Made by a program: the position numbers and the translations under genes. A DNA stretch of 64,000 nt from Escherichia coli (GTDB lineage Bacteria; Pseudomonadota; Gammaproteobacteria; Enterobacterales; Enterobacteriaceae), in assembly GCF_044324875.1 (NCBI RefSeq), contig NZ_CP172188.1; one strand, written 5' to 3'. The notes under the pieces are model-generated. The model saw only the letters and a program-made list of their open reading frames with translations. It was not told where the DNA came from and did no database searches. Positions 150 to 63,375 of the stretch are shown here, in pieces. How positions within the stretch are numbered: position 1 is the stretch's first letter; each line of letters begins with the position of its first letter.

Positions 150-449
150 CCTTTCGAAATAAACGTACTGATTAATCATGCCCAGGGGCATTTCGAGTTT
201 TTCCGCGATCTCACGGCGGGGAACACCACACTGATGAAGCTGCCGTGCCAGTTCTATATCGCTCTGCCGGTATTTGGCTGACGGATGAAAGTCACCTTTC
301 AGAATCATTCTGATCCCCAGTTCCCGCGCTTTAGTCCTGACAGCATCTCCGGTACGCCCGATCAGCCTCCCTATACTCTCGACTGTCATAGTTCCGGCAC
401 ACTGGCGGAGTATCATGATTTCTGCCCTTCTCCATCCCCGCCATCTCAC
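132..449 (-). CDS. putative DNA-binding protein with two helix-turn-helix-like segments
   Basis: 105-aa ORF; TVESIGRLIGRTGDAVRTKARELGI and VPRREIAEKLEMPLGMINQYV look like HTH motifs; true start uncertain. Confidence 0.4.
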   Translation of the reverse strand: MRWRGWRRAEIMILRQCAGTMTVESIGRLIGRTGDAVRTKARELGIRMILKGDFHPSAKYRQSDIELARQLHQCGVPRREIAEKLEMPLGMINQYVYFERRVYEV

Positions 450-596
450 GCTGACATCCTCTTAGACATAAACTCAACAAAACGAACTGCATCTTCAGAA
501 ACAACGCCGCATGACTTCAGCGAAAAACCGCCGAGAACCCTCGCCCAATGCGGGCGGGGAGGAAAGGCGGAAAAGCCCGAAGGGCTTTAAAAAAAA

Positions 597-1022
597 TCAT
601 TCCGGCGTTGACTGGTTTTGAACGTAAGCCCTGAGTGTTTCAATCGTTGCTCCTCCGGTACTACATGCAAAGTAGGCTCTCGACCAAAGCAAGCCTGTTT
701 TGCTCTGTGTTCGTAAATGTGTGTTTTGTTGACGTAGCAGACGTGACGATACTGATTTCAAATTATTCACCATTACGCTGACTGCCAGCTTTGGCGGATA
801 GGCAACCAGTAGATGTACATGATCTGCTTCTCCATCCATTTCAAGAATTTCGCATTCAAGTTTTGCAGCAGCGGAACAAAAAGCTTCCCGTAGTTGCTCT
901 ATCATGCAGCCGTCAAAAAGTTTTCTGCGGTATTTTGTAGTGAAAATTAAATGCACAACGAGCTTACTCACGCTGTGACGTTTCCGAAGGAATCCCTCAA
1001 GGGATTCATGCTGTTCGCTCAA
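597..1022 (-). CDS. tnpA: IS200/IS605 family transposase TnpA (Y1 HUH transposase)
   Basis: 141 aa; HVHLLV (HuH) motif and the size typical of IS200 TnpA. Confidence 0.85.
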   Translation of the reverse strand: MSEQHESLEGFLRKRHSVSKLVVHLIFTTKYRRKLFDGCMIEQLREAFCSAAAKLECEILEMDGEADHVHLLVAYPPKLAVSVMVNNLKSVSSRLLRQQNTHLRTQSKTGLLWSRAYFACSTGGATIETLRAYVQNQSTPE

Positions 1023-1078
1023 TTGAAAAAACGCCTCAATTTGTTAAAATGATTGAATAATATCAATGAGCGCTGAGT

Positions 1079-2257
1079 ATGTTAAGAGCGACAAAAGTAC
1101 GCATATATCCCACTACTGAACAGGCTGAGTATCTCAATGCCCAGTTCGGTGCGGTACGTTTTGCGTACAATAAAGCTCTTCACATCAAAAAACATGCTTA
1201 CCAGCGATACGGGGTGAATTTAAGTCCGCGCAAAGATTTAAAGCCGTTGCTGTCTATAGCGAAGAAGTCCCGTAAGTATGCCTGGCTCAAAGAGTTTGAT
1301 TCAATGGCATTGCAACAGGCAGTAATTAATCTTGATGCGGCATTTTCCAACTTTTTTAATCCGAAGCTGAAAGCACGGTTCCCGACGTTTAAACGTAAAC
1401 ACGGGAGACAATCGAGCTATCACTGCACCGGAATCAAGGTGCTGGATGATGCCATTAAGATCCCTAAACTGAATCTGCCGATAAAGGCGCGTATACACCG
1501 TGTAATTACGGGAAAAGTAACGAGCATAACAATTACTCGCAATGCCGCTGGGGAATATCACGCATCCATCCTTTGTGATGACGGTATTCCCGCGCCAGAG
1601 AAACCCACGTATCTGGAAGAAGAAAAGATTACTGGTGTGGACATGGGATTAACAGATTATGCCATCAAATCGGATGGTAATAAGGTTGGTAATCCTCGTC
1701 ATCTCATCAATGCCAGTCGTAATCTGCGACGCAAACAAAAAGCGTTATCCCGCAAGCAAAAGGGAAGCGCGAACCGTAAAAAGGCCAGAATCCGTCTGGC
1801 AGCGTTACACGAACGGGTGGCTAATGCCCGTGCTGATTTTCAACACAAGCTCTCTCGTGCAATTGTTGACGAAAACCAAGCGGTAATTGTCGAGACGCTG
1901 AAAACAGCCAACATGATGAAAAACCACAATCTGGCAAGAGCGATAGGTGATGCAGGCTGGCATAGCTTCATCACAAAGCTGGAGTACAAGGCAGCGGAAA
2001 AAGGCGTTCACCTGGTAAAACTCGACCAGTGGTTTGCCAGTTCGAAAACGTGCCATTGTTGTGGTTACAAAATGCCGGAAATGCCGCTTCATAAACGCAT
2101 CTGGCGATGCCCTGAATGTGGAGCAGAGCACGACCGCGATATCAATGCGGCGCTCAATATCCGGCAAAAAGGAATACTGGAACTAAAGGCGGCGGGACTC
2201 GTCGTTTCTGTCCATGGAGGCCAGCGTAAATCCGTCGAACAGACGGTAGCGGCCTGA
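1079..2257 (+). CDS. tnpB: IS605-family TnpB (RuvC-like RNA-guided nuclease, OrfB)
   Basis: 392 aa; N-terminus MLRATKVRIYPT..., C-terminal zinc finger CHCCGY...CPECGAEHDRDINAALNI typical of TnpB. Confidence 0.85.
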   Translation: MLRATKVRIYPTTEQAEYLNAQFGAVRFAYNKALHIKKHAYQRYGVNLSPRKDLKPLLSIAKKSRKYAWLKEFDSMALQQAVINLDAAFSNFFNPKLKARFPTFKRKHGRQSSYHCTGIKVLDDAIKIPKLNLPIKARIHRVITGKVTSITITRNAAGEYHASILCDDGIPAPEKPTYLEEEKITGVDMGLTDYAIKSDGNKVGNPRHLINASRNLRRKQKALSRKQKGSANRKKARIRLAALHERVANARADFQHKLSRAIVDENQAVIVETLKTANMMKNHNLARAIGDAGWHSFITKLEYKAAEKGVHLVKLDQWFASSKTCHCCGYKMPEMPLHKRIWRCPECGAEHDRDINAALNIRQKGILELKAAGLVVSVHGGQRKSVEQTVAA

Positions 2258-2300
2258 GAAGTGGGAAGCCTCGCCCGACAGGGCGGGGAGCAGTCACATA
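2140..2300 (+). ncRNA. predicted omega-RNA (reRNA) region at the tnpB 3' end / IS right end
   Basis: Inferred from the known position of the TnpB guide RNA scaffold over the tnpB 3' end and right-end hairpin (2269-2289); not demonstrated from sequence alone. Confidence 0.3.
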
Positions 2301-2846
2301 ATTCATTGCGTCATTAGGTAGCGGATTAGTTGGTTCGGCATTTGCCAGGGATTGAGATAAACGCGTGATTAATTTGACCATTCTCCGCTGCCGGAGGTTG
2401 TATCCTTCAGCTAAAGACAGGTAACTGGAAAGGGTATTGCTTAAGCGGGCGCGAAGCTGATCCGTGCCGTGACATTCAATAGCAACATCACGTAACGCAT
2501 CGACCAGTTCACGGTAAAGATGCGCTGCCATTCTGCAATCTGTGTCAGATGGTGCTTCATAAATTACCGTCAACCCCAGTTTTTCAGCCAGAGCGTGTTC
2601 TGCACGTGCTCCTGCGGACACATCCCATCCCTTAAGCAGATAGATCGCATCAGCAGAACGCACCATTGCCAGGCAAATATCCATGTATTCACTCTGGCAA
2701 AGGCCACCAGGTAACACAGCTGGATTCAGAACGATATGCCCTTCAGACATCAGCTCGCTCGCTTTCGCATTAAACGCCGCACGGTTGTAGTCTGGATAAC
2801 CAGTCATCGGCCCCGCGATGTAAATTTTCAAAACACGTTTCACCAT
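2154..2846 (-). CDS. DUF4406 / nucleoside 2-deoxyribosyltransferase-like protein; 3' part reads into the IS605 right end
   Basis: N-terminus MVKRVLKIYIAGPMTGYPDYNRAAFNAKASELMSEGHIVLNPA matches the DUF4406 pattern; start ATG at 2846 overlaps the stop of the upstream small ORF (TGATG); the frame below ~2300 runs through the IS hairpin and the tnpB 3' end. Confidence 0.45.
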   Translation of the reverse strand: MVKRVLKIYIAGPMTGYPDYNRAAFNAKASELMSEGHIVLNPAVLPGGLCQSEYMDICLAMVRSADAIYLLKGWDVSAGARAEHALAEKLGLTVIYEAPSDTDCRMAAHLYRELVDALRDVAIECHGTDQLRARLSNTLSSYLSLAEGYNLRQRRMVKLITRLSQSLANAEPTNPLPNDAMNYVTAPRPVGRGFPLLRPLPSVRRIYAGLHGQKRRVPPPLVPVFLFAGY

Positions 2847-3001
2847 CAAAATTTCCCCAAAATCGTGACGCAAAACATAAGCACTGCGAAAAGCTCAATA
2901 CCAAGCTCAAGTAGCGCCAACGCCCCGAAAAACAACACATAGAACAGGCCAATCTCATTCACAGATGGCTGGTGGATCGCACTTAAAGCTATAAGCATCA
3001 T
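2846..3001 (-). CDS. small hydrophobic protein (51 aa)
   Basis: GGAGGA Shine-Dalgarno before ATGATG at ~3001/2998; MMLIALSAIHQPSVNEIGLFYVLFFGALALLELGIELFAVLMFCVTILGKF; stop overlaps the start of the downstream gene. Confidence 0.35.
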   Translation of the reverse strand: MMLIALSAIHQPSVNEIGLFYVLFFGALALLELGIELFAVLMFCVTILGKF

Positions 3002-4196: not shown

Positions 4197-4301
4197 AATA
4201 CTGACTGTTGCGCCCTGGCATTATCGTGGGGTATATTTCTACGGCACCTTAGAAAAACGGGTGCCGGGATTGGAACCCCGGATAATGCAAAAGGCGACAC
4301 A

Positions 4302-4323
4302 GACGCCGAAAGCGTCTTTTCTT
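4302..4323 (+). terminator. rho-independent terminator candidate
   Basis: gacgc-cgaaa-gcgtc hairpin followed by ttttctt. Confidence 0.5.
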
Positions 4324-4329
4324 GTGTCA

Positions 4330-4508
4330 TGCCATCGCACAGCCATACGTAGCGTTTAGCTCAGAGATCAATGGTAGTGCTGGCTGGGCTGCCGAAAGGC
4401 AGGCCGGTTCCCTTTTGCGCCGGTAGTTCCAACCCAGTCAGTGCTACCGCCATTGAGATTGGAACCTCACGCGGTAGCTCCTTAAATTAGCAAAAGGAGG
4501 CTGCCAAT
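4330..4508 (+). promoter_or_regulatory. structured leader of antirepressor module A (differs from the leaders of modules B/C/D)
   Basis: Hairpins ctgcc-gaaa-ggcag (~4388-4401) and gttccaa...ttggaac (~4415-4458); AGGAGG before the ATG at 4509. Confidence 0.3.
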
Positions 4509-4724: not shown

Positions 4725-5665
4725 TGAATCTGTCCATCTCTCAAAAAGCGACAATGACCAGCATTGAGATCGCGGAACTGGTAGGAAGTCGCCAAGATAG
4801 TGTGAAGAGAACTATCGAAACACTGGCTAAAAAGAGTGTGATCCAATTTCCACAATCTGTGGAAATTGAAAATAAACAATCAGTTGGCCCTCGTCGATTT
4901 TCCAAGGCTTACATCTTTGAAGGCGAACAAGGCAAGCGCGATAGTATCATTGTCGTCGCACAGCTCTCTCCGGAATTCACCGCCCGGCTGGTGGACCGCT
5001 GGCGCGAACTGGAGAATGCCAGGGGACCGTTAAAATCAAAAGCCGAAATCCTGGCTGAAATGGCGCAAATGCATCTTGAGCATGAACGCCGGATCAACGC
5101 CGTAAATGCCCAGGTAGCCGAGGTATCAGCACAAGTATCGATGGTCGCTGAAACACTCGAGCAAATAAAGAAAGGCAATATGCCGGAAGGCTACATTGGC
5201 TACCGCCAGCTGGCGGCGAAATGCGGCCTGACTGAAGCCAAATGTCGCAACCTGGTTAACGCTTACCGGATACCCACTGATACGCATGAGTTTTTGACTC
5301 CCGACGGTTTGCTTGCGCGACGCTCAATTGTGGCCCTGGCCCCCTTCCGGAAAGCCTTTAAGCAGGTTATGTCGGAGGCAGAACCACGCAACAAACGCTG
5401 GTATCATCCAAAGATGGGGATGTTTCAGGCAATCCACCATCCTGTGCCTGAAAGTCCAAAGGCAAACCTGTCGTTGCATACCGCCAGAGAGAGGATTAAA
5501 ACAGGGTATGCAATCGTATGCCGTCGAGCATCTTGGCCTGAAGGTGTATGGGTATGGCCCGAAGGTGGATCACGAAAGCACTGGCGCACTATCCGGGATG
5601 GGAAAATCCATGCGATTGATTTAGCTCCAGAGGATGTTGTTGCTACGGACTGGATTGTTAGTTAA
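4724..5665 (+). CDS. phage antirepressor-type protein (Rha-like N-terminal domain plus conserved C-terminal domain), module A
   Basis: 313 aa; N-terminus ...MTSIEIAELVGSRQDSVKRTIETL... resembles the Rha regulatory domain; C-terminal ~180 aa nearly identical to the module B and C proteins. Confidence 0.6.
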   Translation: MNLSISQKATMTSIEIAELVGSRQDSVKRTIETLAKKSVIQFPQSVEIENKQSVGPRRFSKAYIFEGEQGKRDSIIVVAQLSPEFTARLVDRWRELENARGPLKSKAEILAEMAQMHLEHERRINAVNAQVAEVSAQVSMVAETLEQIKKGNMPEGYIGYRQLAAKCGLTEAKCRNLVNAYRIPTDTHEFLTPDGLLARRSIVALAPFRKAFKQVMSEAEPRNKRWYHPKMGMFQAIHHPVPESPKANLSLHTARERIKTGYAIVCRRASWPEGVWVWPEGGSRKHWRTIRDGKIHAIDLAPEDVVATDWIVS

Positions 5666-27961: not shown

Positions 27962-27990
27962 TTGATCTTCCATGTTTTCAGGCTTATATT
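27962..27990 (+). promoter_or_regulatory. sigma70-like promoter of module B
   Basis: TTGATC - 17 bp - TATATT; identical sequence in module D and, reverse-complemented, in module C. Confidence 0.5.
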
Positions 27991-27996
27991 CACGCC

Positions 27997-28237
27997 GTTG
28001 CAGCAAATTCTGCGACCGGGTTTAGCAGCCTGAATGTACATGCGGACAACCGCAGATATCCGATATTGCGGTATTTTTGTGTCCGTAAAACCATGTTACG
28101 CCCGAATTATGGTGGGGCGTGATGGGGAGGCTTCGGCCTGCTGGTTTCATGTACGCCAGTCTGCTAACCCCGTCACGTCCTGCCACCCGTTTAGCAGCGG
28201 GTAGCAGGTTGTTAAACCTGTACATGAGGCCGTAACT
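27997..28237 (+). ncRNA. structured leader with an embedded c4-like antisense regulator and two target sites (module B)
   Basis: Elements TTAGCAG/GTACATG at 28022-28042 and 28191-28226 (the second abuts the GAGG Shine-Dalgarno) are complementary to CATGTAC/CTGCTAA at 28148-28167; the complementarity is kept by compensatory changes in modules C and D. Confidence 0.5.
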
Positions 28238-38325: not shown

Positions 38326-38566
38326 AGTTACGGCCTCATGTACAGGTTTAACAACCTGCTACCCGCTGTCAAACAGGTGGCAGGGCGTGACAGGGTTGAC
38401 AGACTGGCGTACATGAAACCAGCAGGCCGAAGCCTCCCCATCACGCCCCACCATAATTCGGGCGTAACGTGGTTTACGGACACAAAAATACCGCAATATC
38501 GGAAATCTGCGGATGTCCGCATGTACATTCAGGCTGTCAAACCTGGTCGCAGAATTTGCTACGACG
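38326..38566 (-). ncRNA. structured leader with a c4-like antisense regulator (module C)
   Basis: Minus-strand elements TTGACAG/GTACATG (targets) and CATGTAC/CTGTCAA (antisense) in the same arrangement as module B. Confidence 0.5.
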
Positions 38567-38571
38567 GCGTG

Positions 38572-38600
38572 AATATAAGCCTGAACATCTGGAAGATCAA
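38572..38600 (-). promoter_or_regulatory. sigma70-like promoter of module C
   Basis: Reverse complement of TTGATC-17-TATATT. Confidence 0.5.
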
Positions 38601-63100: not shown

Positions 63101-63129
63101 TTGATCTTCCATGTTTTCAGGCTTATATT
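63101..63129 (+). promoter_or_regulatory. sigma70-like promoter of module D
   Basis: TTGATC-17-TATATT, identical to module B. Confidence 0.5.
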
Positions 63130-63135
63130 CATGCC

Positions 63136-63375
63136 GTCGTAGCAAATTCTGCGACCAGGTTTGACAGCCTGAATGTTAGTGCGGACAACCGCAGATTTCC
63201 GATATTGCGGTATTTTTGTGTCCGTAAACCGCGTTACGCCCGAATTATGGTGGGGCGTGATGGGGAGGCTTCGGCCTGCTGGTTTCACTAACGCCAGTCT
63301 GTCAACCCTGTCACGTCCTGCCACCTGTTTGACAGCGGGTAGCAGGTTGTTAAACCTGTTAGTGAGGCCGTAACT
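63136..63375 (+). ncRNA. structured leader with a c4-like antisense regulator (module D)
   Basis: TTGACAG/GTTAGTG at 63161-63181 and 63329-63364; complementary CACTAAC/CTGTCAA at 63286-63305. Confidence 0.5.

Follow-up and report, generated by a model that had tools for sequence, protein, structure and literature searches.

An IS200/IS605-family insertion sequence with divergent tnpA and tnpB genes and a predicted omega-RNA scaffold in the 3′ end of a DUF4406 gene of an Escherichia coli phage-plasmid

We analyzed 64,000 nt of Escherichia coli DNA (assembly GCF_044324875.1, contig NZ_CP172188.1; called the window here, with window positions as coordinates throughout) in which an insertion sequence (IS) of the IS200/IS605 family lies within the 3′ end of a gene for a DUF4406 protein. 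The backbone is that of a phage D6-like phage-plasmid; where the first 5 kb can be aligned with D6, the identity is 93.7%. On the evidence given below, we consider it very probable that the element is an intact, IS605-type member of the family that carries divergent tnpA and tnpB genes and was inserted recently. A first-pass annotation made from the sequence alone had called tnpA, tnpB, and subterminal palindromes of an IS200/IS605 element from position 480 onward; domain matches and hairpins bear out the family call, while the IS proper begins at 521 and ends at 2297. Features of the locus are listed in Table 1.

Both genes encode proteins with the expected catalytic residues. TnpA has an HUH motif (H68-V-H70), a C-terminal tyrosine (Y133), and a following glutamine (Q137). 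TnpB matches the Pfam families HTH_OrfB_IS605, OrfB_IS605, and Cas12f1-like_TNB, each with an E value of ≤2e-18, and over residues 4 to 382 it matches ISDra2 TnpB (8bf8/8exa/8h1j) with an E value of 4e-79. The RuvC triad is intact, with D188, E272, and D354 aligning with D191, E278, and D361 of ISDra2, and both CxxC pairs of the zinc finger (C325 and C328, C344 and C347) are kept. Each gene is preceded by a sigma-70-like promoter match with 10 of 12 consensus positions plus a TG extension; these are consensus matches only, and since promoter and terminator scans gave counts no higher than those in shuffled sequence, all such sites are candidates. On the minus strand, past the tnpA stop, a strong hairpin (572-596; AAAGCCC-TTCG-GGGCTTT) has a single-stranded DNA (ssDNA) z-score of -4.6, is conserved throughout the relatives, and probably serves as the tnpA terminator. 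As tnpA is co-oriented with the operon that the element interrupts, this terminator could block read-through into downstream operon genes.

Two nearly identical, G+C-rich hairpins in the same orientation mark the ends of the element, CCTCGCCC-AATGC-GGGCGGGG at 539-559 and CCTCGCCC-GACA-GGGCGGGG at 2269-2288, and these are the only matches to the hairpin motif in the window. The termini themselves (CGAAAAACC... and ...CAGTCAC) bear no inverted-repeat relation to each other, in agreement with the definition of the family. A megablast search of complete E. coli genomes found the IS together with the shared TTCAG (1,782 bp; 516-2297) at 100% identity in norW of the E. coli TUM9803 chromosome, and RefSeq gives tnpA matching coordinates in that copy.

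Table 1. Coordinates of features at the insertion locus, with omega-RNA helices also counted from the right end and set beside those of ISDra2
Feature	Position	Strand	From right end, this element	From right end, ISDra2	Basis or remark
IS200/IS605-family insertion sequence, complete	521..2297	+			1777 bp; identical copy in norW of TUM9803 and reconstructed empty site
Target pentanucleotide TTCAG, adjoining left end	516..520	+			TnpA insertion and predicted cleavage site, presumed TnpB TAM; present in pAPEC201603 empty site
Left-end subterminal structure	528..570	+			outer stem 528-532/566-570 around GAGAA (533-537) and inner hairpin 538-559; ssDNA fold
tnpA, Y1 HUH transposase, 141 aa, TTG start	597..1022	-			Pfam Y1_Tnp, E=1e-38; NCBIfam transpos_IS200, 137 bits (cut-off 55)
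Intergenic region with divergent sigma-70-like promoter matches	1023..1085	.			tnpB, 1023-1050 (+); tnpA, 1085-1057 (-)
tnpB, predicted RNA-guided endonuclease, 392 aa	1079..2257	+			three Pfam domains; NCBIfam guided_TnpB, 356 bits
Predicted omega-RNA scaffold, 116 nt	2182..2297	+			synonymous constraint, covariation, RNAalifold, ISDra2 layout
Omega stem 1	2187-2194 with 2200-2207	+	-111..-104 with -98..-91	-116..-111 with -91..-86	predicted helix
Omega pseudoknot	GACU 2196-2199 with AGUC 2292-2295	+	-102..-99 with -6..-3	-105..-103 with -5..-3	predicted; strand in stem 1 loop, as in ISDra2
Omega stem 2	2211-2215 with 2261-2265	+	-87..-83 with -37..-33	-84..-81 with -35..-32	predicted helix
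Omega stem 3a	2218-2226 with 2248-2255	+	-80..-72 with -50..-43	-77..-71 with -48..-42	predicted helix
Omega stem 3b	2232-2236 with 2242-2246	+	-66..-52	-70..-49	predicted helix
Omega stem 4	2269-2276 with 2281-2288	+	tetraloop -21..-18	tetraloop -20..-17	same as right-end hairpin
Right-end subterminal hairpin	2269..2288	+			same as omega stem 4; terminus ...AGCAGTCAC after hairpin; predicted right-end cleavage after 2297
Flank templating 16-nt guide ATAATTCATTGCGTCA	2298..2313	+			inferred from ISDra2 rule: guide immediately 3′ of right end
Native DUF4406 part, codons 1-183	2298..2846	-			Pfam DUF4406; DNA and protein alignment with pAPEC201603
IS-derived tail, 47 codons plus stop	2154..2297	-			antisense to tnpB 3′ end and omega scaffold; stop at 2154-2156
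Stranded DUF4406 3′ remnant, last 24 codons (LKSCGVVSEDAVRFVEFMSKRMSA) plus stop	446..520	-			sequence comparison with IS-free gene

The empty site was reconstructed from an uninterrupted DUF4406 gene. The IS-free plasmid pAPEC201603 reads ...GCATGACTTCAG|ATAATTCATTGCG..., giving an empty site of TTCAG|ATAATT and an insertion point between 520 and 521, directly 3′ of TTCAG, with target bases neither duplicated nor lost. A 63-nt joint made by deleting 521-2297 was found at 100% identity in many IS-free plasmids; with the threshold at ≥99% identity, it occurred in 35 complete plasmids of E. coli and in 44 plasmids of PLSDB (Escherichia, Salmonella, and Shigella). The listed matches all fall within DUF4406, except for one record in which the stretch is unannotated. 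To the right of the IS, 2298-3000 is matched in ~80 E. coli plasmids, with DNA identity reaching 99.4% (the value for pAPEC201603), and always by an annotated DUF4406 gene without the IS. Since the pAPEC201603 gene runs 24 codons past the junction, the insertion indeed lies in the 3′ end of that gene, where the first-pass annotation had put it. A chance origin is excluded by the domain E values, the identical 1,782-bp stretch in another genome, and the exact empty site in dozens of plasmids.

The 3′ end of tnpB and the right end of the IS had been proposed earlier to encode an omega-RNA scaffold starting at ~2140; the prediction of a scaffold holds, while its conserved part starts at ~2182. 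Synonymous constraint was scored in 30-nt windows across six lineages that differ by 9 to 24% overall. The fraction of invariant third codon positions in tnpB was 0 to 0.3 in 2000-2179 and 0.7 to 0.9 in 2180-2239, and 88% of the 40 nt past the tnpB stop were invariant. Minimum free energy folding and RNAalifold placed five helices within 2187-2288. A seven-sequence alignment of close relatives (A8) contained no double changes, and shuffles did as well, so it was uninformative. A covariance model built from close relatives located the scaffold at the tnpB 3′ end in diverged IMG/VR lineages (L036/L037, L060, L069, L056, and L032). In the 15 sequences, 96.8% of cells were paired and 15 of 38 pairs had compensatory double changes, a level reached in 0 of 500 shuffles, with slid controls giving at most 6. 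RNAalifold likewise predicted these helices, and its covariation term was favorable (-4.41). These sequence data argue for a structured guide-RNA scaffold spanning the tnpB 3′ end and the right end.

Counted from the right end, the helix positions agree within ~5 nt with those of the ISDra2 omega RNA (Nakagawa et al. 2023, PMC10097598), and their order and spacing are equal. The scaffold overlaps only TnpB residues 368 to 392, which match the disordered C-terminal region of ISDra2 TnpB, and in both systems it overlaps a dispensable protein tail alone; the Deinococcus radiodurans enzyme also shares the catalytic D/E/D residues and the zinc finger. The two systems differ in target and transposon-adjacent motif (TAM), which is TTGAT in ISDra2 and TTCAG here, and in most TAM-contact residues. 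By the ISDra2 layout, the guide would be templated from 2298 onward, in keeping with the earlier proposal that the right flank supplies it. TTCAG followed by ATAATTCATTGCGTCA is intact in IS-free plasmids; a guide of this sequence with a TTCAG TAM would match the IS-free site, while the occupied site is preceded by GTCAC and would give no match. In ISDra2 the tnpA and tnpB genes are co-oriented, whereas here they are divergent. An extension of the pseudoknot beyond 4 bp was tried and failed, and the fourth pair (U2199-A2292) is not conserved.

We also considered whether the 116 nt could be conserved only as a DNA signal for the TnpA right end and not as RNA, which we judge very unlikely. Stem 4 is the right-end hairpin bound by TnpA as ssDNA, which explains part of the conservation, and the scaffold region has no above-threshold Rfam match. 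However, both conservation and compensatory changes continue for ~90 nt upstream of the hairpin and take in stems 1, 2, and 3b, and the helix layout reproduces that of the ISDra2 omega RNA. No IS200/IS605 right end is known to need these stems. No omega-RNA family came up in Rfam, either at E≤1 or at gathering thresholds; the sole match for the scaffold was HgcC (RF00062) at 2198-2304 (+), scoring 16.7 bits (gathering score, 50; E value, about 1). This weak match includes the terminal hairpin, and HgcC, which carries a right-end-like tetraloop, has been linked to the right-end-like motifs of tnpB 3′-end RNAs (sotRNAs) (PMC4615843), but a subthreshold score does not make the scaffold a member.

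Raised third-codon-position invariance was seen at two other places inside tnpB, 1079-1168 and 1799-1888 (0.5 versus ~0.2 elsewhere). The second overlaps an invariant block at ~1858-1895 (GCAATTGTTGACGAAAACCAAGCGGTAATTGTCGAGAC) that includes the codon of the RuvC glutamate, and it may hold an extra signal, a candidate being an internal omega-RNA promoter. Downstream of the main element, the opposite (minus) strand has weak matches to the omega model in L026 (3006-3112, 23 bits) and L027 (2968-3048, 16 bits), which may be remnants of another related IS end.

The element is widespread. Database records of the exact TnpB come from 192 contigs and those of the exact TnpA from 223, and the 90%-identity clusters that hold the two proteins have members named from E. 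coli, Klebsiella, Salmonella, and Yersinia. Nine more insertion sites, retrieved by way of the exact TnpB, were scored by identical TnpB and identical ends. Together with the window, these give ten independent sites, with TTCAG on the left side in eight and ATCAG and GTCAG in one each; the right flanks are unrelated, the termini are invariant, and no site has a duplication. Such a pattern is characteristic of IS200/IS605 transposition. Identical copies at different loci with intact genes imply recent transposition, and the element is apparently still active.

It is correspondingly hard to see the window copy as a decaying relic or as a domesticated, nuclease-dead TnpB (a TldR-like regulator), and we give this explanation only a slight chance. 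Many plasmid relatives have lost tnpA (L008-L010), and another relative, L007, is truncated on the left and has lost 13 nt of the omega scaffold; in the window copy, by contrast, both open reading frames (ORFs) are intact and all catalytic residues are kept. The identity of its 1,782 bp to a copy at another locus and the occurrence of the exact proteins at no fewer than ten different sites argue instead for recent transposition. L007 (E. coli MS 196-1 plasmid, NZ_CP146684.1, 601-2111) lacks the left end and part of tnpA, and its 13-nt deletion takes out the pseudoknot strand together with the 3′ strand of omega stem 1; this copy appears to have decayed. Isolated 38-nt right-end copies, 100% identical to 2260-2297 and comprising hairpin and terminus, are present in unannotated DNA of E. 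coli plasmids H120 to H124, where the rest of the IS is absent.

Across relatives, the target and the motif just 5′ of the left-end hairpin change together without exception. GAGAA goes with TCAG in the window type and its 87 to 91% identical relatives, tnpA-less forms included, while GTAAA goes with TTAG in ISEc46, in relatives from Enterobacter and Serratia, and in the 68% identical lineage L036/L037. IS608 follows a pairing rule between guide and cleavage site, and the G-to-A change opposite the C-to-T change fits this rule. The element resembles IS608 of Helicobacter pylori in its Y1 HUH transposase, its subterminal hairpins, and its insertion 3′ of a fixed tetranucleotide without duplication; the target (TTAC in IS608, TCAG here) and the gene orientation differ. 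As an explanation of the TCAG/TTAG difference on the TnpB side, the TAM-contact residues were considered and rejected, because the aligned residues are equal in both groups apart from M76/I.

ISEc46 of E. coli is the nearest named IS among the matches, with ~78% DNA identity over the full length and ~83% identity in TnpB. Like our element, it has tnpA and tnpB in divergent orientation and the same hairpins, and the two align end to end, with the last ~110 nt and the right terminus (...GTCAC) identical, but ISEc46 inserts after TTAG and carries GTAAA at its left end. Under the ISfinder convention, the same IS requires ~95% DNA identity or more, and on this measure the sequences place our element as a related but distinct IS and not an isoform of ISEc46. 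Closer in identity are tnpA-less, IS609-like/insQ elements (89 to 91% identical over left end, tnpB, and right end), which have the same TCAG target; at ~1.34 kb they are nonautonomous, unlike the autonomous window copy. They adjoin psiA on IncI-type plasmids and lpa on P1-like plasmids, and one record annotates IS609/insQ. A further tnpA-less element, L010 (pMTY1586_IncY, NZ_CP135714.1, 301-1630), has an ISEc46-type tnpB that is 79% identical to that of the window and a window-type left end, with GAGAA and an insertion after TTCAG. L010 is a natural chimera in which TnpA-type target and TnpB lineage are mismatched, and together with the TCAG/TTAG switch it provides natural material for testing how TnpA targeting stays matched to TnpB TAM specificity.

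Several observations weigh against the interpretation as a whole. The covariation alignment was fitted to the covariance model, and no more than three or four diverged lineages contributed the compensatory changes. The pseudoknot pairs are invariant and never covary, and L032 breaks one of them. The residues that contact the TAM in ISDra2 (Y52, S56, K76, T123, and N124) are not conserved in TnpB, and because they are neither conserved nor group specific, TnpB TAM specificity is unreadable from sequence. Transcription and processing of the omega RNA, cleavage by TnpB, and the equation of TAM with TnpA target are predictions.

The insertion has reshaped the DUF4406 gene. A minus-strand ORF (2154-2873) matches DUF4406 (PF14359; E=2e-33, 114.9 bits, cut-off 22) over residues 16 to 105 of the listed ORF and stays open through the right-end hairpin into the antisense strand of the tnpB 3′ region. 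This had been noticed in the first-pass annotation, which took the C-terminus to be probably IS derived; both points hold, except that the native start is the ATG at 2846 and not the upstream TTG of the listed ORF. The junction falls exactly after codon 183 (Tyr, 2300-2298) of a 207-codon gene. IS-free orthologues of 207 aa (pAPEC201603) and 203 aa (D6) begin at the equivalent ATG and end differently, with the native tail LKSCGVVSEDAVRFVEFMSQRMSA in pAPEC201603 and its partly conserved counterpart LKSCNVVSEDGV... in D6; in the window, 47 codons (VTAPRPVGRG...FLFAGY) stand in place of the native 24. The idea that the long ORF is native, with a genuine C-terminus that IS-like sequence merely overlaps, has practically no prospect of being correct, for although the frame is open across 239 codons, the IS-free genes of pAPEC201603 and D6 end 24 codons past the junction in a tail that is different and partly conserved (LKSC.VVSED.V), the displaced 24 codons persist at 446-520, and unrelated flank ORFs that read into the IS copies at L017 and L020 end at the same IS-internal stop. 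The 230-aa "DUF4406" protein called here and in two other public assemblies is thus an insertion artifact whose true C-terminus has been displaced.

Because the insertion lies well downstream of the DUF4406 domain, the catalytic core is untouched. The gene belongs to a long leftward operon that comprises DUF4406, a DNA-binding protein, several small genes, a metallophosphoesterase, and DUF968, and a 1.8-kb insertion may be polar on the downstream genes. The same right junction and an identical 230-aa fusion protein are found in L022 (GCA_965255965.1, CBDGJA010000029.1, ~5250-5400). There, the left end abuts a different C-TTCAG, ~46 nt upstream of the metallophosphoesterase gene, which in IS-free pAPEC201603 lies ~3 kb further down the operon; a ~3-kb deletion adjoining the left end is therefore implied, perhaps through recombination between two IS copies. 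The L022 left flank was looked for in the 64-kb window and is absent.

These features fit a scheme drawn largely from the family. TnpA would move the top strand as ssDNA, recognizing both subterminal hairpins and cutting 3′ of (T)TCAG on the left and after ...GTCAC on the right. Insertion 3′ of TTCAG at codon 183 of DUF4406 in a D6-like phage-plasmid has left the last 24 codons beyond the left end, and the fused ORF now reads 47 codons from the antisense strand of the tnpB 3′ end. TnpB would bind an omega RNA consisting of the last ~116 nt of the element and ~16 nt of right flank and would cut IS-free copies of the site (TTCAG plus ATAATTCATTGCGTCA), which would favor retention or homing of the element. 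A more speculative extension, which we think improbable though worth stating, is that the IS copy serves as an RNA-guided weapon between sibling phage-plasmids, cutting incoming or co-resident IS-free relatives at DUF4406. It is suggested by the dozens of D6-like phage-plasmids (E. coli, Salmonella, and Shigella) that lack the IS and keep both the guide sequence (2298-2313) and the TTCAG TAM intact; if true, the outcome would be exclusion of the IS-free relative or, as in a gene drive, its conversion to the IS-bearing form.

The element is a textbook case, with everything falling within the IS200/IS605 and TnpB-omega paradigm. It is now mapped at base level, and the value of this lies mostly in a clean annotation that will not surprise specialists: the ends, the (T)TCAG target motif, and the omega scaffold are now fixed for a widespread enterobacterial IS that has so far been annotated generically. 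We found no characterization of this element in the literature on ISEc46, IS609, and TnpB TAMs. Its TnpB is fairly closely related to the ISDra2 enzyme, which is used in editing, and is testable with a defined TAM and guide.

Elsewhere in the window, four C4 antisense RNA genes score above the Rfam gathering score (4244-4454, 27984-28190, 38373-38578 on the minus strand, and 63123-63328). In three of the C4 RNAs, a c4-a1b1 target element comes first; ahead of the fourth (4367-4454) lies an isrK match (4244-4322). Four such genes imply that this 64-kb stretch of a D6-like phage-plasmid holds several immI-like immunity modules.

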